A stretch of 64,000 nucleotides of DNA from an uncultured Chloroflexia bacterium (GCA_963778815.1 CAVZVS010000004.1:771987-835986), one strand, 5' to 3'. Counted from the stretch's first letter, positions 3,753-44,601 are shown. Notes: a model not told the origin generated them from the letters alone. Translations and numbers: made by a program.

Positions 3753-4403
3753 TCAATCCAGCCGGCGGATGACCCCGATGAGCTTGCCCTGGATCCTGAC
3801 GTCGTCGTAGTACATGGGCTGATACTCGGCGTTCGCGGGCTGCAGCCGGATCCGCCCCTGTTCCTTATAGAACTTCTTGAGCGTGACTCCGTTTTCCTCG
3901 ACCTGGGCGACCACGATGTCCCCGTTGCGAGCGGTGGTCTGGGGGCGGATCACCACGAAGTCCCCATCGGCGATGTGGGCCTCGATCATCGAGTCCCCGC
4001 GGACCCGCAGGACATAGGCATCGCCGCTCGGAGCGAACACATCCGGGACGGCCAGCGACTCGTCGGCTCGTTGATAGGCTTCGATCGGGCCGCCGGCGGC
4101 GATCTCGCCGATGATCGGCAGGAGGTGCGCCTCCGTGGCGGCCGACTGGGGGGTCAGCTCGCTCGATAGTCCGAGCTCGAGGGCTGCCTTGGGCGTCAGC
4201 CGGATGGCCCGCGCCTCCGACTCGTGGCGATCGAGGTACCCCTCGCGCTCGAGGATCTGAAGGTGGTGATGGACCGCGGAGGTCGATGCCAGCCCGACGG
4301 CACGGGCGATCTCACGGACCGACGGCGGGAAGCCGCGGGTTCGCAGCGTCGCCGCGATGTAGTCGAGGATCTTGACCTTGCGGTCTGCATCGTGCTTGGT
4401 CAT
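3753..4403 (-). CDS. lexA: LexA repressor
   Basis: ORF 3753..4727 trimmed to ATG 4403 (MTKHDADRKVKILDYIAATLRTRGFPPSVREIARAVGL...). It has a winged HTH, an AAG cleavage-site region (GEIAAGGPIE) and S24 peptidase motifs (VRGDSM, ...VTLKKF). An SD GGAGG and an SOS-box promoter lie upstream. Confidence 0.95.
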   Translation of the reverse strand: MTKHDADRKVKILDYIAATLRTRGFPPSVREIARAVGLASTSAVHHHLQILEREGYLDRHESEARAIRLTPKAALELGLSSELTPQSAATEAHLLPIIGEIAAGGPIEAYQRADESLAVPDVFAPSGDAYVLRVRGDSMIEAHIADGDFVVIRPQTTARNGDIVVAQVEENGVTLKKFYKEQGRIRLQPANAEYQPMYYDDVRIQGKLIGVIRRLD

Positions 4404-4424: not shown

Positions 4425-4453
4425 ACCGTACCGAACGGACGTTCGATTGTCAA
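4425..4453 (-). promoter_or_regulatory. lexA promoter with LexA (SOS) box in the spacer
   Basis: The minus strand reads TTGACA (4453-4448), a 17-nt spacer and TACGGT (4430-4425). The spacer contains the palindrome CGAACGTCCGTTCG (4445-4432), which fits CGAAC-N4-GTTCG. Confidence 0.75.
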
Positions 4454-5522: not shown

Positions 5523-6814
5523 AAGTCGACGAAGCCGATCCCGATCGCCCACAGGCCATAGGCGCAGATCAGGACCGCCGCGAGGGCGGCCACCCAGGCC
5601 AGCCGCGACATGCCCCGCTCGAAGACGGTGGCCAGGATGACGAACAGCAGCGGCTGGACGTCCAGGCTGAAGCGATAGCCGAACTGGGTCAGCCCGACGT
5701 TGCCGTGGGTGACGATCGGGATCAGGGCGATGGCGGTCCCGATGGTGGCCCAGGCGACCCGCGGATCACGCCAGCGAGCCCGGAACAGCCAGAGCATCAG
5801 GGGTGTCGTCAGGAACAACGACAACCCGTACCAGGACGGCTCGAAGAACGGCGGATCGTCGACGAAGTTGAAGCTGCGCAGGAAGATCGCGTAGATATGG
5901 CGCGGGATGTAGTCGATGCTCAGGATCCCGTGCTTGGCATAGATCGGGTCGTCCAGCACGCCCGGGATGAGCACATAGCTCTGGTCGACGATGGTGCCCC
6001 AGCGGGCCTCGTTGTAGAGCACGTAGCCGATGGTCGGGATGGCGATCCCGAGCAGGAAGGCCAGAGCGTTCCGGACCGCCCGTCGGCGTTCGGCCCTGGC
6101 CGGCAGTCGGGGTGGCCAGCCCAGCCCGACGATGATGGCCAGGAAGAACGGCGCGGTGAGGCCGACCGGGAGTCGTGAGATCGCGGCCAGCCCGAGCAGC
6201 AGCCCGACCAGGAACGGCCAGCGTCGCTCGAACAGGACGAGCAGGGCGGCCATGCTGAACATGACCGCGACGACGTGGCTGATGTACCAGACCGAGCCGA
6301 CCTCAGCGACGTACCACAGGACGGTGCCGAAGCCGAAGACGATGGTCAGCCCGAGCCGGACACGACCGCTCAGGGCGAACCGACCGAAGACGAGCCAGGC
6401 CAGGCCGACCGCGATCCCGCCGAAGATGCAGCTGGCGATGTGCTGGTCGAAGCCGACCCCGAAGACGGCGACGAAGGGCATCAGGAGGACCGCCGGCCAG
6501 GGCGGGTAGGCCACGTACCAGACGCCGTCCTTGGGGATGAGCTCGTTGAGCCAGCTGGGCGCCTCGGTCAGGTAGATCCGGCCATGGAGCATCGCATCGG
6601 CCAGGCGGACGAAGTAGTCCAGCTCCTGCCGATCGCGCGATGAGGTGAACAGGTAGATGGCTGTCGTGACGACGACCACGATCAGGGTCCCGAGGGTGTC
6701 CGGCCGATCGCGGATGTAGTCGACCAACTCGGCGAGTCGGGTCTCGGCGAACCACTGGGTCAGGCGGGTGGTTCGAGAAGGTGGACGCGCCAGGTCTTCC
6801 TCGAGGTTGGCCAT
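5519..6814 (-). CDS. polytopic membrane protein, candidate GT-C (ArnT/PMT-like) glycosyltransferase
   Basis: ORF 5519..6883 trimmed to ATG 6814 (MANLEEDL...). It has many hydrophobic helices. The N-terminal third resembles ArnT/GT39-type enzymes by eye, so the family call is tentative. Confidence 0.55.
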   Translation of the reverse strand: MANLEEDLARPPSRTTRLTQWFAETRLAELVDYIRDRPDTLGTLIVVVVTTAIYLFTSSRDRQELDYFVRLADAMLHGRIYLTEAPSWLNELIPKDGVWYVAYPPWPAVLLMPFVAVFGVGFDQHIASCIFGGIAVGLAWLVFGRFALSGRVRLGLTIVFGFGTVLWYVAEVGSVWYISHVVAVMFSMAALLVLFERRWPFLVGLLLGLAAISRLPVGLTAPFFLAIIVGLGWPPRLPARAERRRAVRNALAFLLGIAIPTIGYVLYNEARWGTIVDQSYVLIPGVLDDPIYAKHGILSIDYIPRHIYAIFLRSFNFVDDPPFFEPSWYGLSLFLTTPLMLWLFRARWRDPRVAWATIGTAIALIPIVTHGNVGLTQFGYRFSLDVQPLLFVILATVFERGMSRLAWVAALAAVLICAYGLWAIGIGFVDF

Positions 6815-6839
6815 CGGCCCGAAGATACACTCTCGAGCG

Positions 6840-8054
6840 ATGAGCGAGGGCACTCCTGCCGACCTGGGCGATCCCTGGCGCATCGCCCTGCGCGACGCGA
6901 TCGGTCTCCTGGTCTCGCTCCGGATCGTGTTCGGGCTGATCGCGCTCTACGTATGGTTCACGGCCACCTTGCCCGGCCCGTGCCACTTCGAGCTGGCCCG
7001 CAACGGCTGGTCGACGATCCCTCCGCTGGCCGACCACGGCGCAGCATTCCCGCTCGTCGGGGTGTGGCAACGCTGGGACGCGTGCTGGTACACCAAGATC
7101 GCGACGTACGGCTACGAGGCCAACGAGAACAGCGTCAACTTCTGGCCACTGTTCCCGCTCCTGACCGGGTTCGTCGGACGGGTCCTGCTCGGATCGATGG
7201 CGCTTGGCGGATTGGTCGTGGCCAGCGTCGCGTATATCGCCGCGATGGTCGGCCTGCGCCGTCTGGTCGCCTTCGACTTCGACGATCGGACGGCCTTGAC
7301 CACGATCGTCGCGATCTCCATCTTCCCGACCGCGTTCTTCTTCTTCGCCCCGTTCACCGAGTCGCTCTTCCTGGTCTGCGCGGTCTGGGCGATCCTGGGC
7401 GCCCGTCGTCGCTGGTGGGCTGTCGCCGCGATCGCCGGCTTGCTCGCCGCCCTGACCCGGATCCAGGGCGTCTTCCTGGTGCTGCCGATCGGTTGGGAGG
7501 CGCTGATGGCTTGGCGCGACACGGGTTGGCGGGTCCGCTCCGGTCCGATCCCGCCGGCCGGGATCGTCGTCCGGTCGACGATCGCCGCCCTGGCGCCAGC
7601 CATCGGGTTCTTCGGGTTCCTGGTCTTCTCCTCTGTCGTCGCCGGCAAGACGCCGCTCGATACCCAGGACGCCTGGGGCGGCAAGAACTTCCACCCGCCG
7701 TGGGAGGTGATCGAGGCTTCCTGGCGGTTCGCCGTCCTGCATCACGATCCGCTCCAGGTCCTGAACATGTTGACCCTGGTCTTCTTCAGCCTGGTCACCC
7801 TGATCGGTCTGCGTCAGGTGCCGGTGTCGTACTCGCTCTTCGCCATCCCTCAGATCATCCTCATCGGGACACGCATCCAGCCGACCCCGCTGACTTCGAC
7901 GGCGCGCTATCTGCTGGTGGTCTTCCCGGTCTTCGTGATCCTCGCCCTCGTTCCGGAGCGCTGGCGTTGGCCGAGGTTCGCCTGGGCACTCGGTTCGGCG
8001 ATGCTGCTGGCGCTCCTCCTGGTGATGTTCCTTCACGGCGACTACGTGGCGTGA
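6840..8054 (+). CDS. polytopic membrane protein, candidate PIG-V-like GT-C mannosyltransferase
   Basis: ATG 6840 (MSEGTPADL...). Multi-TM. The motif QRWDACWYTKIATYGY resembles the WD-x-x-WY-x-x-IA-x-x-GY motif of PIG-V-like bacterial proteins. Tentative. Confidence 0.55.
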   Translation: MSEGTPADLGDPWRIALRDAIGLLVSLRIVFGLIALYVWFTATLPGPCHFELARNGWSTIPPLADHGAAFPLVGVWQRWDACWYTKIATYGYEANENSVNFWPLFPLLTGFVGRVLLGSMALGGLVVASVAYIAAMVGLRRLVAFDFDDRTALTTIVAISIFPTAFFFFAPFTESLFLVCAVWAILGARRRWWAVAAIAGLLAALTRIQGVFLVLPIGWEALMAWRDTGWRVRSGPIPPAGIVVRSTIAALAPAIGFFGFLVFSSVVAGKTPLDTQDAWGGKNFHPPWEVIEASWRFAVLHHDPLQVLNMLTLVFFSLVTLIGLRQVPVSYSLFAIPQIILIGTRIQPTPLTSTARYLLVVFPVFVILALVPERWRWPRFAWALGSAMLLALLLVMFLHGDYVA

Positions 8055-8061
8055 GCCTGCC

Positions 8062-9339
8062 ATGAGCCTCGGGCCGACGATCCTGCACGTGGACCTGGAT
8101 GCCTTCTTCGCCGCGGTCGAGCAGCGCGACCGGCCCGAGCTCCGGGGCAAGCCGGTCATCGTCGGTGGCAGCGATCCGACGGCACGGGGCGTGGTCAGCG
8201 CGTCGTCCTATGAGGCGCGCCGGTTCGGGGTCCACTCGGCGATGCCCTTGCGGACCGCCTACGCGCTGTGTCCGCAGGGCGTCTTCCTTCCGGTCGACGG
8301 GCGCAAGTACCAGGCCGTCAGCCGCGAGGTCATGACCATCCTGCGAACGTTCACCCCGCTGGTCGAGCCGGTCTCGATCGACGAGGCGTTCCTCGATGTG
8401 GCCGGGTCGCGGGCACTGTTCGGCGACGGACCGACGATCGCGATCGCCATCCGGGCCAAGATCCGGGAGGAAGTCGGCCTGACCGCGTCAGTCGGCGTCG
8501 CCACGACCAAGCTCGTGGCCAAGATCGGGTCGGATCTGCGCAAACCGGACGGTCTGGTGGTCGTCCAGCCGGGCGAGGAGAGCGCGTTCCTGGATCCGTT
8601 GCCCATCTCGCGGCTGTGGGGCGTGGGCGAGAAGACGGCTGGGGCCCTGGCCGAGTACGGGGTGCAGACCATCGGCGATCTGGCCAGGCTGCCCGACGAT
8701 CTGCTCGTTCGTCGGTTCGGCAAACAGGGTGCATCGCTGGGATCGCGAGCGCGAGGCATCGACCCAGACCCGGTCGGTGGCGCGGATCCGGCCAAATCGA
8801 TCGGGCACGAGCACACCTTCGACGTCGACACCTCGGATCCGGACACGATCGAGCGAACTCTCCTCGGGATGGCCGACGGGGTAGCTGCGCGGCTTCGTTC
8901 GGCCGGGCTCAAGGCGGGTACGGTCCAGGTAAAGATCCGCGATACGAACTTCCGGACGATCACCCGCCAACGGACCCTGTCCGACCCGACCGACCTGACC
9001 GAGCCGATCTGGCGCGCCGCGATGGACCTGGCCCGACCCGAGTTGCGCGGCTTGCGGGTGCGCCTGATCGGGGTCACCGCGACGAACCTTGGGGAACGTT
9101 TGCAGTTGGGGATGTTCGAGGACGAGGCTGCTCAGGATGCCGTGCCCACCGAGCAGCGCCGGCGAGCGACCGCGGCCGCAGATGCCGTCCGCCGTCGGTT
9201 CGGGGATCGGGCGATGACCCGGGCGCGTCTCCTCGGCGCCGACCTGCCCGCGCCCTTCGAACGCGACCCGATGAAGCCGCTCGAGCGACGGACGGGCATG
9301 CCCGACCAGGGAGGCGAACCGCAGGATCCCGAGCGGTAG
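8062..9339 (+). CDS. dinB: DNA polymerase IV (Y-family)
   Basis: ILHVDLDAFFAAVEQRDRPELRGKPVIVGG, SIDEAFLDV, and little-finger and HhH regions (LPISRLWGVGEKT). Confidence 0.93.
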   Translation: MSLGPTILHVDLDAFFAAVEQRDRPELRGKPVIVGGSDPTARGVVSASSYEARRFGVHSAMPLRTAYALCPQGVFLPVDGRKYQAVSREVMTILRTFTPLVEPVSIDEAFLDVAGSRALFGDGPTIAIAIRAKIREEVGLTASVGVATTKLVAKIGSDLRKPDGLVVVQPGEESAFLDPLPISRLWGVGEKTAGALAEYGVQTIGDLARLPDDLLVRRFGKQGASLGSRARGIDPDPVGGADPAKSIGHEHTFDVDTSDPDTIERTLLGMADGVAARLRSAGLKAGTVQVKIRDTNFRTITRQRTLSDPTDLTEPIWRAAMDLARPELRGLRVRLIGVTATNLGERLQLGMFEDEAAQDAVPTEQRRRATAAADAVRRRFGDRAMTRARLLGADLPAPFERDPMKPLERRTGMPDQGGEPQDPER

Positions 9340-9387
9340 GCGTCTTTCGGGTCGGGCCCTCGCGCGCTCCACCTGAAGTCCCGTCGG

Positions 9388-9407
9388 TGATGCGAGTCGA
9401 TGCATCA
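9388..9407. promoter_or_regulatory. operator-like element copy A (TGATGC-N8-GCATCA)
   Basis: TGATGCGAGTCGATGCATCA. It sits inside a 26-bp perfect direct repeat (9382-9407 equals 9448-9473). Confidence 0.5.
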
Positions 9408-9453
9408 TCGGCACGGTTGCTGGAGACCGCCGATCCTTCGCGGTCTTCGTCGG

Positions 9454-9473
9454 TGATGCGAGTCGATGCATCA
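9454..9473. promoter_or_regulatory. operator-like element copy B (TGATGC-N8-GCATCA)
   Basis: Identical to copy A, 66 bp downstream. Both lie between the convergent ends of dinB and the XRE gene. Confidence 0.5.
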
Positions 9474-9552
9474 CGGATCGAGGTGCGCGGCGCACCCCCT
9501 CGAGAGCTACCGACGCTCGCACGGACGTGGCGCCGACCATGCAACACCCGCA

Positions 9553-9792
9553 TCAGCGGTCGTCTAGGTCGATCCTGACCTTGCCTACGACAGCGACCAA
9601 CCTCGCCAGGTGAGCAACGCGAATGCTCGTGCGGCTGCCCGTCTCCAGCCGCGAGATCGTTGATTGGGGAACACCGCTCAACTCTGCCAGCGAGCGCTGC
9701 GAAAGGCCGTGGTTCGCTCGGGCGTGTCGGAAGCCGCGCCCGATCGCTTGAACTCCCGCTTCCTCTCGATTCGATGGCCGAGGCATGAACAT
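9553..9792 (-). CDS. XRE-family helix-turn-helix transcriptional regulator (about 79 aa, HTH only)
   Basis: ORF 9553..9954 trimmed to ATG 9792 (or 9786). MFMPRPSNREEAGVQAIGRGFRHARANHGLSQRSLAELSGVPQSTISRLETG is the classic XRE HTH. There is no C-terminal peptidase or sensor domain. Confidence 0.75.
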   Translation of the reverse strand: MFMPRPSNREEAGVQAIGRGFRHARANHGLSQRSLAELSGVPQSTISRLETGSRTSIRVAHLARLVAVVGKVRIDLDDR

Positions 9793-9843
9793 CGAGTCAA
9801 TCTGACCACATGGCCCTGCACTCGCGATCAACCGACTTGTGCG

Positions 9844-9863
9844 TGATGCATCGACTCGCATCG
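9844..9863. promoter_or_regulatory. operator-like element copy C (inverted core, one arm mismatch)
   Basis: TGATGCATCGACTCGCATCg. It is part of a 24-bp direct repeat (9839-9862 equals 9934-9957). It lies about 50 bp upstream of the XRE start. Confidence 0.5.
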
Positions 9864-9880
9864 CGCGAGCAACGCTGCGA

Positions 9881-9928
9881 GGTGAAGCGGTGAAGCGGTG
9901 AAGCGGTGAAGCGGTGAAGCGGTGAAGC
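9881..9928. repeat. octanucleotide tandem repeat (GGTGAAGC)x5 plus GGTGGAGC
   Basis: Read directly: perfect units at 9881, 9889, 9897, 9905 and 9913, and an imperfect unit at 9921-9928. Confidence 0.95.
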
Positions 9929-9938
9929 GGTGGAGCTG

Positions 9939-9958
9939 GTCGTGCGTGATGCATCGAC
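9939..9958. promoter_or_regulatory. operator-like element copy D (perfect arms, inverted core)
   Basis: TGATGCATCGACTCGCATCA, the exact reverse complement of copies A and B. Confidence 0.5.
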
Positions 9959-10088
9959 TCGCATCACGGAGGGATACCTCCGCCGCGCCGCTCGGCGTCG
10001 CCGGCAGACCGAGAACGACTACAGAGGGAACCCTGCAGGCCATGACATCCGAGCTGTCACGACTGCCAGCGAGTCTGCGCGAAAGGGC

Positions 10089-10118
10089 TTGACATCGAAC
10101 ATGCGTTCGGTCTACTGT
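10089..10118 (+). promoter_or_regulatory. SOS-regulated promoter: TTGACA-N18-TACTGT with LexA box in the spacer
   Basis: TTGACA 10089-10094, CGAACATGCGTTCG 10096-10109 (perfect CGAAC-N4-GTTCG) and TACTGT 10113-10118. The layout matches the lexA promoter at 4425-4453. Confidence 0.7.
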
Positions 10119-10130
10119 CGAGCCAGAAGT

Positions 10131-10142
10131 GAACAGACGTTC
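10131..10142 (+). promoter_or_regulatory. second, weaker LexA-box-like site in the 5' UTR
   Basis: tGAACAGACGTTCt has the GAAC-N4-GTTC core but non-consensus flanks. It lies about 10-15 nt downstream of the predicted TSS. Confidence 0.4.
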
Positions 10143-10201
10143 TGTCGCCGAGGTGCCCCGGCCGACGACGAAGTCGCTGCCGACAGAAGGAGCCGATAGA
10201 G

Positions 10202-10471
10202 ATGGCGATGATCCGAATGGAACCGACCGTCGTGCGGGTCCGAACCGACTGGTTCGATGGCCGCCCGCGCGAGATCACCTGGGGCGAGGAACGCCTCACC
10301 GTCACCGCCCTGGCGGCCGTCCGTCACGAGGACTCGGCCTATCCGATGGAGATCGGACCGAGGACCGTCTTCGAGGTCGAAACGGCTCGGGCCCGGGTGG
10401 CCCTAAGCTTCCAGCATCGCTCGCGGCGCTGGACCATCGAAGGCCTCGACGAGGATCGAACGGCGGCCTGA
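10202..10471 (+). CDS. orphan 89-aa soluble protein, predicted SOS-induced
   Basis: ATG 10202 is preceded by GAAGGAG. GC3-rich codon usage. There is no TM segment and no family I can name with certainty. Confidence 0.6.
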   Translation: MAMIRMEPTVVRVRTDWFDGRPREITWGEERLTVTALAAVRHEDSAYPMEIGPRTVFEVETARARVALSFQHRSRRWTIEGLDEDRTAA

Positions 10472-42326: not shown

Positions 42327-44234
42327 TTGGCGGAGATCGGAAGCGTCCTCGGTGGGCGATATCGGCTGGTCGAGCTCCTCGGCCAGGGCGGTATGGCCAC
42401 GATCTTCCGGGCCACCGACAGCCAGCTCGGCCGCGACGTCGCGGTCAAGGTCCTTCGCCCCGAGTACGGCCGCGATCCGGACTTCGTCGCCCGCTTCCGG
42501 ATGGAGGCCCAGTCGGTCGCCTCGCTGAGTTCGCCCAACATCGTCGTGGTCCACGACTTCGGGATGGACCCGGCCGGGCCGTTCATCGTGATGGACTACG
42601 TCGATGGCGAGGATCTGGCGACCCTCCTGCGCCGGACCGGTCCGCTTTCTCCGTCGCAGTCCGCCCGGATCGCCGCCGAGGTCGCCCGGGCCCTGGCCGT
42701 GGCCCATTCGCGCGGGATCATCCATCGCGACATCAAGCCGGGCAACATCCTGCTGGCCAGCGGCGGGCGCGTCCTGGTGACCGATTTCGGGATCGCCCGG
42801 GCCCTGGCCGAGGCGCAGATGACCCTGCCCGGAACCACCCTCGGCTCAGTCCAGTACATGAGCCCGGAGCAAGCCCGCGGCGCGCCCACCACCGAGCGAT
42901 CGGATATCTACAGCCTGGGCGTGGTCCTGTTCGAGATGCTGGCCGGCCGCCGCCCGTTCGAGGGCGACAGCGCAGCGTCGATCGCCCTGGCGCGGCTGAC
43001 CCCGCCGGTGCCGATGCCATCGACCTACCGGGCGGGTATCCCGCCGGTGCTCGAGGCGATCTGCCGCAAGTCGATGGCGATCGATCCGGCCGATCGGTTC
43101 TCCTCGGCCAGCGCCATGGCCGATGCCCTCGAGGATGACCTGGCCGATCGGACCGCGGCTGCGGCTGGTCTGGGCGTGGTCGGTGCGGCGGGTGCCGCTG
43201 CTGCAGCCGCTACGGTCGCCGCGGTGGCCCGGGCCAATCCGGGCAGCCCCATCCCCTATGCCGCCGATGCCTACGCCGGAGCCGGGACCTCGGCCGCTCC
43301 GCCGCCACCGCCCGTGGCCCCTCCTCCCGCGCTGGCCGACGACGATGGCGACAGCGGGGGCACCGGGCCGTGGGCCTGGATCGCCGGCATCCTCGGCCTG
43401 CTGATCCTGCTCCTGGTCGGCTTCCTGTTCCTCAAGCTGCTGACGGGTGGCGGTACGCCCACCGCCAACCAGGTCGTCGTCCCGAACTTCGTCGGTCAGA
43501 CCCTCCAGCAGGTCCAGGCCCTGGCCGACGCCACGGGCGTGGTGGTAAAGGCGACCCAGTTCGTCAAGAGCAACGACCAGCCGGAGGGGACCATCACCGC
43601 CCAGGATCCCGCCGCCAACGTGACGGTCGATAAGGGTTCCACGATCAACGTGACGGTGGTCACTGGGCAGGCCCTGGTCGCCGTGCCCGACGTCAAGAGC
43701 CAGACCGAATCGAACGCGCTCAAGGCGCTGGTCCAGGCCGGCCTCGTCCCTGGCACCGCGACCCAGGAGTTCGATCCGATCGTGATCGCCGGCTCGGTCG
43801 TCTCGACGTCGCCGGCGGCCGGGGTCGAGGTGGCCTCCGGCACCACCATCGACTACGTCGTGTCGAAGGGCCCCGAACCGAGCGCGACGCCATCGCCCTC
43901 GCCGACGCCCAGCCCGACCCCCGCGCCGACACCGTCACCCACGCCGACCCCTACGGTCGCACCGCCCACGCCGACCCCGACGGCGTTGCTGACGACGGTC
44001 GGCGAGTATCGCTGCCAGACGCTTGGCGAGGCCAAGGCCGATATCGCGGCTGACGGCTTCACGGTCGGCACGGTCACCTCGGCGCCGCCCGGCTACACCG
44101 CCGACGACACGTCACTCGTCTTCGAGCAGTTGCCCTTGCCCGGCAAGAAGCGAACGGCCGGCACGCCGATCGACCTGGGCGCGTACGACCCGGCCTCCTA
44201 CCCCTACCCGACCTGTCCGCCGGCGACCCCCTAG
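42327..44234 (+). CDS. Ser/Thr protein kinase with three PASTA domains (PknB-like)
   Basis: TTG 42327. GQGGMATIF, VAVKVL, HRDIKPGNIL, DFGIAR, one TM helix, and three PASTA-like repeats with a Pro/Thr/Ser linker. Confidence 0.9.
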   Translation: MAEIGSVLGGRYRLVELLGQGGMATIFRATDSQLGRDVAVKVLRPEYGRDPDFVARFRMEAQSVASLSSPNIVVVHDFGMDPAGPFIVMDYVDGEDLATLLRRTGPLSPSQSARIAAEVARALAVAHSRGIIHRDIKPGNILLASGGRVLVTDFGIARALAEAQMTLPGTTLGSVQYMSPEQARGAPTTERSDIYSLGVVLFEMLAGRRPFEGDSAASIALARLTPPVPMPSTYRAGIPPVLEAICRKSMAIDPADRFSSASAMADALEDDLADRTAAAAGLGVVGAAGAAAAAATVAAVARANPGSPIPYAADAYAGAGTSAAPPPPPVAPPPALADDDGDSGGTGPWAWIAGILGLLILLLVGFLFLKLLTGGGTPTANQVVVPNFVGQTLQQVQALADATGVVVKATQFVKSNDQPEGTITAQDPAANVTVDKGSTINVTVVTGQALVAVPDVKSQTESNALKALVQAGLVPGTATQEFDPIVIAGSVVSTSPAAGVEVASGTTIDYVVSKGPEPSATPSPSPTPSPTPAPTPSPTPTPTVAPPTPTPTALLTTVGEYRCQTLGEAKADIAADGFTVGTVTSAPPGYTADDTSLVFEQLPLPGKKRTAGTPIDLGAYDPASYPYPTCPPATP

Positions 44235-44244
44235 GCGCGGGATC

Positions 44245-44601
44245 TCAGGCCTCGACGTCGATCCAGAAACTGCCCGGGCGATCGGCCCGGAGGGGGTCCG
44301 GGTCGGGCCGTGACGGATCGGTCGCCAGATGCAGACCGAACGGCTGTTCGTCGCTGGCGACCGAGGCGTCGACCGAGGCGGTCCCGGCCACCAGCGCGAT
44401 GGGTGATGTCCAGCAGGCCTTGATCTCGTCACCGACCAGCGCGCCACGGCGTCGGTCGAGCCCGCAGTAGCCGAGACCGCCGAACACGGCGTGGCGGAAG
44501 TTCAGGCAGGTGGCGCAACTGGTGCTGGAGCGGTGGCAGACCCAGCACCGGGCCGCTTCGGCCTGCGGAGTCCGGCAGTGCGGGCAGCGCCACGTCGCCA
44601 T
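44245..44601 (-). CDS. Cys-rich (zinc-ribbon-like) hypothetical protein
   Basis: MATWRCPHCRTPQAEAARCWVCHRSSTSCATCLNF... Confidence 0.5.
   Translation of the reverse strand: MATWRCPHCRTPQAEAARCWVCHRSSTSCATCLNFRHAVFGGLGYCGLDRRRGALVGDEIKACWTSPIALVAGTASVDASVASDEQPFGLHLATDPSRPDPDPLRADRPGSFWIDVEA

Follow-up and report, generated by a model that had tools for sequence, protein, structure and literature searches.

Locus and comparison

A 64-kb stretch of DNA from an uncultured Chloroflexia bacterium (GCA_963778815.1, CAVZVS010000004.1:771987-835986; hereafter the window) carries two small divergent genes between the stop codon of dinB (9339) and the FTCD_C gene (10575). The first (9553-9792, minus strand) encodes a 79-aa helix-turn-helix (HTH) protein of the XRE family, here called XRE, and is flanked by copies of a palindrome, TGATGC-N8-GCATCA. 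The second (10202-10471, plus strand) encodes a soluble all-beta protein of 89 aa, here termed p89, and is preceded by a promoter with two LexA boxes. An earlier note on this DNA had proposed that both form an SOS-to-antirepressor relay, in which the LexA-controlled small protein would inactivate the XRE repressor. The comparison of relatives does not support such a relay. Instead, the region is probably composed of two adjacent, evolutionarily separable modules: the class-wide SOS gene p89 and a lineage-specific cassette in which a HipB-like XRE protein would bind on both sides of its own gene.

All organisms compared are represented by metagenome-assembled genomes (MAGs) of uncultured bacteria. 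Loci with p89 or XRE that were fetched from other genomes bear L-numbers (L001 etc.). For the comparison of species one genome per species was used, which yielded 80 p89 loci from 80 species. Nearly all of them are labelled as Limnocylindria or Chloroflexota MAGs, and three carry other taxon names.

p89, a class-wide gene behind two LexA boxes

p89 belongs to a rare family, with 154 representatives at 50% clustering among 1.8 billion proteins. Altogether 562 homologues were found, nearly all of them 89 aa long and 68-100% identical among the matches listed. The few named homologues come from Chloroflexota or Candidatus Limnocylindrales MAGs. In addition, a profile search uncovered a distant subfamily of 86/87 aa. 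The position of the gene is largely constant: dinB is located upstream in 74 and FTCD_C (as FTCD_C-folD) downstream in 78 of the 80 species loci.

The p89 promoter (10089-10118, plus strand) is composed of TTGACA (10089-10094), an 18-nt spacer and TACTGT (10113-10118), and the ribosome-binding site of the open reading frame (ORF) is GAAGGAG. LexA box 1 (GAACATGCGTTC, 10097-10108, plus strand) lies within the spacer. This box had been recognized in the earlier note, which overlooked a second, exact box (GAACAGACGTTC, 10131-10142, plus strand) just 3' of the -10 region; the two are about 34 nt apart. In Gram-positive bacteria, the motif of LexA is GAAC-N4-GTTC (PMC3323433). The window contains four such motifs, compared to 0.72 expected, and one of them is found at the promoter of lexA itself. 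Reportedly, the same motif has also been demonstrated for LexA of Dehalococcoides, a member of the Chloroflexi. The presumed trans-acting repressor of p89 is encoded 6 kb upstream by lexA (3753-4403, minus strand; LexA_DNA_bind 3.5e-20, Peptidase_S24 1.4e-32). An exact 14-mer box (CGAACGGACGTTCG, 4432-4445) in the divergent promoter region between lexA and the DUF1232 gene is a perfect CGAAC-N4-GTTCG and the likely autoregulatory site. No LexA box with up to one mismatch occurs between this box (4432) and the p89 boxes (10096), the upstream region of dinB included.

Both boxes are highly conserved. In 79 of the 80 species loci, two exact GAAC-N4-GTTC boxes about 34 nt apart are present at most 200 nt upstream of p89, and in 72 the first one is surrounded by TTGACA-N17-19-TAnnnT. 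The distant 86/87-aa subfamily has the same promoter design, LexA boxes included, and one of its loci has lexA, dinB and the p89 counterpart (p86) side by side on the same strand. In L141, a distant locus, dinB is located directly 3' of lexA, and the lexA promoter there shows the arrangement TTGACA-box-TAnnnT as at p89. A scan of the region for consensus promoters and terminators gave no match and overlooked even the conserved p89 promoter. The features by which a LexA regulon is recognized in sequence are all found here: boxes that overlap the promoter, an S24-type LexA with a box of its own and conservation of the boxes across species. p89 is very probably under LexA control. LexA would bind to both boxes and keep p89 tightly off until its RecA-stimulated cleavage upon DNA damage.

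A further palindrome, TGACA-N7-TGTCA (10043-10059), is located some 30 nt 5' of the p89 -35 region and marks the right edge of the ancestral sequence. With an N6 or N7 spacer, 74 of the 80 species loci have retained it, and it can be aligned in relatives with and without XRE. Another regulator might bind here, or the palindrome could be an element of the dinB 3' end.

In the AlphaFold2 model (predicted local distance difference test, pLDDT, 85; predicted template modelling score, pTM, 0.73), p89 consists of six beta strands and, at the C-terminus, a short helix. It yielded nothing over threshold in Pfam, NCBIfam, PHROGs and PADLOC. Foldseek, which the earlier note had recommended for both proteins, found no significant relative of p89: no match had an E value of 0.001 or lower, the best PDB match had 0.66 and the best BFVD match, an uncharacterised protein, 0.025. 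When PDB sequences were searched with a profile, no E value was below 0.43. Three of 36 p89 members matched DUF6504 weakly (best E value 0.0094), far below the gathering cutoff of 24.2 bits, and among the remote members there was one match (E 0.14, 12.9 bits). The other 33 of the 36 members and the other remote members tested gave no DUF6504 match, and no mention of DUF6504 was found in the literature searched. DUF2293 was dropped as a candidate, as it matched only one of 36 members (E 0.037). Long proteins with a p89-like stretch (P0193, P0206, P0237 and others), considered as possible fusions of DinB with p89, were likewise discarded: they are apparent frameshift or read-through calls or unrelated fusions and provide no Rosetta-stone evidence.

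A characteristic of p89 is its C-terminus. Of 271 full-length members, 237 end with Ala-Ala, as does the protein in 69 of the 80 species (86-87%); in the window, these two codons (10463-10468) directly precede the stop codon. Ala-Ala is also kept in the 86/87-aa subfamily and in members with longer tails. A terminal Ala-Ala is the critical element of ssrA-like degrons recognized by ClpXP, although it is insufficient alone (PMC10862746). The tail may be such a degron, and the small six-stranded protein made after damage may be short-lived due to ClpXP-type proteolysis. As a working guess, p89 could be a transient SOS effector that acts with or on translesion synthesis, or a damage checkpoint protein. 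This guess is derived solely from its regulation, its position and its tail.

XRE and its palindromic sites

XRE matches HTH_3 (1.2e-11, 44.9 bits, cutoff 23) and HTH_31 (7e-11, 42.6 bits, cutoff 27). A Pfam scan of the protein revealed no further domain, and neither a sensor nor a peptidase domain is present, in agreement with the previous description of a minimal XRE gene. Its start codon is uncertain, with ATG at 9792, ATG at 9786 and an upstream TTG as candidates. The AlphaFold2 model (pLDDT 86) comprises four helices and a C-terminal tail. The best Foldseek matches are C.BclI, C.AhdI, HipB, SinR and ClgR, and HigA is also among the PDB matches. This means, XRE resembles HipB and the controller (C) proteins of restriction-modification (R-M) systems. 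In NCBIfam, the best match is the Y4mF/HipB-type antitoxin TIGR03070, with 36.5 bits below the cutoff of 71.65. VPQSTISRLE, the recognition helix, does not vary among the 11 sequences of one alignment (A4), and among the 16 sequences of another (A2) only L012 departs from it. In L016 (1905-2290), the XRE frame lacks the usual stop codon and reads through three downstream repeat units, which results in a repetitive C-terminal extension.

Just upstream of the XRE start codon, a conserved block of about 40 nt (NTGATCGCG..GTG..TGnTCAGAT; 9793-9831, minus strand) is the presumed core promoter. Among the 10 XRE-bearing loci compared, most have it in recognizable form. In nine loci its TGn-extended -10-like hexamer can be made out, and there it ends 6-7 nt ahead of the start codon. 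In most loci compared, the first triplet of the block could serve as a start codon (TTG, GTG or ATG). The block is in frame with XRE in the window and in L009, L011 and L013, whereas several other loci have it out of frame. Since the frame relative to XRE varies among loci, the block looks like an element that acts at the DNA level. It is perhaps the promoter of a leaderless XRE mRNA, as the short distance from the hexamer to the start codon suggests. The consensus scan detected no sigma-70 promoter for XRE.

The four palindromes and the inversion of their cores between both sides of XRE had been described correctly. The 20-mer TGATGCGAGTCGATGCATCA (TGATGC-N8-GCATCA) is found four times, compared to 0.02 expected, and not elsewhere in the 64 kb. 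Palindrome A (TGATGC-GAGTCGAT-GCATCA; 9388-9407, plus strand) is located 3' of XRE, 49 nt after the dinB stop codon. Palindrome B (9454-9473, plus strand) is the same as A over 26 nt. Palindrome C (9844-9863, minus strand) has one mismatch and is centred near -61 relative to the XRE ATG. Palindrome D (9947-9966, minus strand) is the outermost copy on the right. Copies on the same side are identical over 26-27 nt. Copies on opposite sides are mutually inverted, with perfect complementarity over 19-21 nt and 88-93% over 27-34 nt, so that the inverted arms comprise 19-34 nt. A possible degenerate fifth site (CATGC-N7-GCATCA, 9538-9555), assigned with low confidence, overlaps the XRE stop codon; at its position L138 has TGATGC-GGCACGG-GCATCA.

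Between C and D, an 8-bp microsatellite, (GGTGAAGC)x7 (9881-9936; TRF score 105, 97% matches), was confirmed. In L138 (600-720) and L139 (505-625) an imperfect 8-bp repeat, GCGCTGGA, takes its place; the XRE of a close relative with this repeat is 89% identical to that of the window. The stretch that separates the two palindromes upstream of XRE is hypervariable, and the microsatellite alters the distance between C and D.

Conservation and co-occurrence support the view that the palindromes behave as the cognate sites of XRE, as had been assumed. YGATGC-N8-GCATCR is present on both sides of XRE in every XRE-bearing locus, with one to four copies on the left and one to three on the right, and the arms of the site are conserved across genomes. 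The shorter motif GATGC-N8-GCATC occurs 30 times in 56 kb of nine XRE-bearing loci, always inside the gap between dinB and p89, versus twice in 408 kb of 71 loci without XRE. These two are a leftover in L008 and a possible remnant in L029. Neither the 64-kb window nor the stretches of about 6 kb around p89 in the nine XRE-bearing loci contain a target site outside the cassette. In these stretches, no XRE regulon of the kind that the earlier note had suggested to define with TGATGC-N8-GCATCA was found; all sites detected flank the XRE gene itself.

How XRE might act from these sites can be deduced from their arrangement. The nearest palindrome centres are located upstream of the XRE start at about -61 in the window and at -72, -82, -94 and further in relatives. 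XRE dimers bound upstream (in the window at centres near -61 and -164) and downstream might associate with each other, so that the promoter is looped out together with the 240-bp gene. Because sites are present on both sides of the gene, a loop would be the most economical mechanism, and autoregulation of XRE through it is moderately likely. The p89 -35 region is separated from the end of the nearest upstream XRE site by about 120 nt in the window and by about 70-125 nt in relatives. As the sites are clear of the p89 promoter, a direct control of p89 by XRE is not suggested.

Alternatively, the repeats could function at the RNA level as hairpins that terminate or stabilize the convergent dinB and XRE transcripts from both directions. 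In the left repeat unit of 66 nt, a GC-rich hairpin read from the sequence, GACCGC-N9-GCGGTC (9425-9445), is located between A and B, so that the unit combines palindrome and hairpin. The repeat units of relatives have another GC-rich hairpin at this position. In alignments, the first palindrome immediately follows the dinB stop codon in L009 and L013, and a palindrome is found at the XRE 3' end in L011 and L013. However, the same palindromes are present upstream of XRE, where a terminator would make no sense. Moreover, they would form a 6-bp stem with an 8-nt loop and no U-tract, and the terminator scan was empty. The predicted fold of 9337-9556 is unexceptional (z = -1.36), and Rfam yielded no match (best E 0.45, a miRNA family). 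A role as RNA hairpins instead of operators is therefore highly improbable. A further GC-rich palindrome read from the sequence, GGTGCGC-g-GCGCACC (9482-9496), is situated in the convergent 3' region of dinB and XRE. It might act as a terminator, although the consensus scan found none.

Descent of the XRE cassette

XRE is found at the same spot in nine of the 80 species, all of them among the 16 loci with a DinB identity of 80% or more to the window. Further orthologues at this spot in L087 and L138/L139 bring the total to at least 11 independent loci. The distance between dinB and p89 amounts to 862 nt in the window and to 166-208 nt in L001, L002, L004, L007, L010, L014 and L015, which lack XRE. 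Among the latter is the closest relative, L007 (p89 93%, DinB 89% identical). A check of synteny, suggested in the earlier note for the module as a whole, thus gave a divided result: the p89 part is class-wide, the XRE part limited to one subclade. Similarly, the lower GC content that had been noticed is a modest dip (64.8% for 9340-10040 versus 69.6% for the window), and the insert comprises only about 9340-10040, whereas the promoter and gene of p89 are ancestral. The XRE family itself is rare, with 10 matches in a large protein collection. A metagenome scan for it yielded 47 loci; palindromes were present only in L087, which was also the sole one to carry p89, and the others encode generic XRE proteins.

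Pairwise identities between the loci range from 44 to 99% for XRE and from 80 to 98% for DinB and are correlated (Pearson 0.79). Compared to the window copy, XRE is 44-76% and DinB 80-89% identical, i.e. XRE evolves far faster than its neighbours. The correlation between both proteins fits vertical descent combined with fast evolution and repeated loss. Degraded cassettes were observed as well. In L008 (1514-3001), XRE is truncated at the recognition helix, a gene for a 335-aa phosphotransferase of the APH family fills the rest of the cassette, and one palindrome is left at the dinB stop codon. Apart from this, L029 (2690-2790), a species outside the XRE-bearing subclade, lacks XRE and has the palindrome-like remnants GATGCACGTGGATGCATC and CGCGATGCATCA, which hints that the cassette may have been more widespread in the past. 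The cassette would have been inherited mostly vertically within one subclade and repeatedly lost or degraded.

Two other origins have to be considered. XRE and its inverted repeats could constitute a mobile or invertible DNA element, either resembling a miniature inverted-repeat transposable element (MITE) or a segment flipped by recombination. The lower GC content and the patchy presence in close relatives would fit, and so would the inversion of left and right copies in every genome, with arms of up to 27-34 nt, and the asymmetric 8-bp cores, which are homogenized within and differ between genomes. However, the cassette occupies one locus in all genomes, and neither the 64 kb nor the fetched loci contain a second copy. 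No transposase or recombinase is encoded, no target-site duplication is visible at the outer repeats, and plasmids and phages yielded no matches. Furthermore, the orientation of XRE relative to p89 is constant in all XRE-bearing loci, without inversion polymorphism, and XRE divergence follows that of DinB. Together, this makes a mobile or invertible element very unlikely.

Somewhat less improbable, but still unlikely, is that the cassette represents the decayed remnant of a two-gene module, such as a toxin-antitoxin (TA) system of the HipBA/HigBA type, an R-M controller or an immunity region, which now persists as an orphan autoregulator and no longer serves its neighbours. The top NCBIfam match to a HipB-type antitoxin, though below its cutoff, and the PDB matches to HigA, HipB, C.AhdI and C.BclI point in this direction. 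The operator geometry equals that of HipB (PMC3376134), truncated or remnant copies exist in L008 and L029, and XRE evolves fast. On the other hand, no toxin, kinase or R-M gene adjoins an intact XRE in any XRE-bearing locus, and the near-invariant recognition helix and conserved site arms argue for continued selection for DNA binding.

Relationship between p89 and XRE

According to the relay hypothesis, p89 is a chromosomal antirepressor that is repressed by LexA and, after DNA damage, binds to the non-cleavable XRE and frees its targets. Such a role would agree with a small, soluble protein behind a promoter with two LexA boxes, with an XRE that lacks a cleavage domain and with the fact that the cassette is seen at this locus alone, in at least 11 independent loci and always divergent from p89. 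The distribution of both genes speaks against it. p89 was found in all 80 species loci and XRE in nine, and in the remaining 71, including the closest relative, p89 has the same promoter. This means, there is no co-inheritance. As p89 and its two-box promoter are found with or without XRE, p89 should function independently of XRE and be the older of the two. In addition, the XRE sites found in the window and the fetched loci all flank the XRE gene and leave no regulon to be switched. A similarity of p89 to phage antirepressors was not found either: no PHROG family matched at an E value up to 1, a tblastn search of 50,697 phage records was without result, and in BFVD even the top viral structure match was not meaningful. 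The absence of a phage context, already noted before, was corroborated: neither in the window nor in the neighbourhoods of the relatives is there a phage, plasmid or integrase signature, no prophage is present at the locus or in relatives, and an 861-bp region had no BLAST match among plasmids. For XRE, a viral scan with its profile yielded weak generic matches and the phage records generic HTH matches only. The relay is thus quite improbable.

The data fit better with the two separable modules outlined above: an ancestral one (about 10043-10471) with p89 as a class-wide SOS-regulon gene of Limnocylindria, and an inserted one (about 9340-10040) with the gene of a minimal HipB-like XRE dimer between arrays of its own GATGC-N8-GCATC site. 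Several observations weigh against this interpretation or parts of it. First, the XRE cassette was found only adjoining p89, and a functional tie between both is therefore conceivable. Second, the central 8 bp of the site are uniform within a genome and differ between genomes; this fits homogenization by recombination as well as recognition by a protein. Third, the XRE sites are located at least 52 nt upstream of the start codon and clear of the presumed core promoter, so that simple occlusion is unlikely and XRE might activate instead of repress its own gene. Fourth, the p89 residues preceding Ala-Ala are mostly Pro, Arg, Gln, Thr or Ser, and in E. coli, Pro or short polar residues just before Ala-Ala weaken the degron (PMC10862746). 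Finally, p89 has its own promoter and is at times separated from dinB by unrelated genes (L026, L066, L053), i.e. its link to dinB may only be positional.

A more far-reaching proposal would restore a tie between the modules. p89 might represent an undescribed family of LexA-gated, short-lived SOS effectors that act on DNA polymerase IV or on another process, e.g. cell division, and in the XRE-bearing subclade it might also relieve or modulate the XRE loop. This proposal is tentative and rather doubtful, albeit less so than the alternatives discussed above.

Neighbourhood of the locus

The gene order in the window is dnaB (minus strand), lexA (minus strand), the DUF1232 gene (plus strand), two unannotated genes, dinB, the XRE/p89 region, FTCD_C, folD and fhs. 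The region is surrounded by conserved housekeeping genes (dnaB, lexA, rplI, dinB, FTCD_C, folD and fhs). In relatives, the order around dinB and p89 is kept and lexA is found at the same relative place. The conserved upstream neighbour dinB (8062-9339, plus strand) encodes the Y-family DNA polymerase IV (IMS 3e-51, IMS_C 2.4e-29, IMS_HHH). In the window, it is apparently co-transcribed with the gene of a 428-aa membrane protein without Pfam match (6768-9339).

The spacer between dinB and p89 is a recurrent insertion site, at which other lineages have unrelated genes. In L026 and L066, the gap contains a long ORF read from its translation, without a Pfam scan, as SPFH/band-7-like, and in L053 an ORF read in the same manner as an ECF sigma factor, together with a downstream ORF. 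Elsewhere in the window, a third perfect CGAAC-N4-GTTCG box (44337-44350) follows just after the gene of a PknB-like kinase (42327-44234). It is located within a Cys-rich 118-aa ORF on the minus strand (44245-44601) that has no Pfam match.

Comparison with known regulators

HipB of the E. coli hipBA operon binds four TATCC-N8-GGATA operators cooperatively (PMC3376134). It is among the best sequence and fold matches of XRE, and both are minimal XRE-family dimers of about 80-90 aa with multiple inverted-repeat sites that have an 8-bp spacer. In contrast to hipBA, no hipA or other toxin gene adjoins XRE in the window or in the intact XRE-bearing loci. Furthermore, the XRE half-site is GATGC, and the sites are found on both sides of the gene and off the presumed core promoter. 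From the C proteins XRE differs in that no R-M genes are located nearby, despite C.BclI and C.AhdI being the best fold matches.

Clusters of sites that bracket a promoter or gene at a distance of a few hundred bp are known from OL/OR around lambda cI and from OE/OI of GalR. The 2+2 XRE sites with 366-539 bp between them are arranged similarly and might allow a comparable loop. Unlike in these systems, XRE has no obvious oligomerization domain beyond its short C-terminal tail, and no phage is involved. With MITEs and insertion sequences (IS) the cassette shares the inverted arms that flank XRE, but it occurs at a single locus, without duplication and without a transposase ORF. The cassette is a variant of the ordinary autoregulated XRE repressors and does not establish a new principle.

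p89 shares with 186 Tum, GfoA/GfhA of Gifsy and AntC of N15 that a small gene with a LexA box is located beside a non-cleavable HTH repressor. In contrast to these, p89 is a core chromosomal gene that is class-wide and mostly without a repressor, it resembles no phage protein in sequence or fold, and there is no prophage. Short LexA-controlled proteins whose genes are located at or close to a lexA or translesion polymerase locus are also known from chromosomes, among them SulA, YneA, DinI, SymE and E. coli dinB-yafNOP. p89 is similar to such small SOS proteins in having LexA boxes and a place beside dinB, and a transient activity limited by proteolysis is plausible. Homology or a fold match to SulA, YneA, DinI or SymE was not found.

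Significance

In practical terms, the chief outcome for this locus is a negative one: with relatives compared, a small gene with a LexA box adjoining a domain-less XRE gene turned out to be no sign of an antirepressor relay. The XRE cassette itself is a compact natural arrangement, in which a repressor gene is embedded in arrays of its own site that vary in copy number. It is useful for the study of operator-array evolution. The SOS regulon of the Chloroflexota is essentially undescribed, especially in the class Limnocylindria, which is abundant in soil and freshwater. p89 is a candidate core gene of this regulon, without annotation or structural relative, and offers a target for studying how these bacteria control mutagenic repair.

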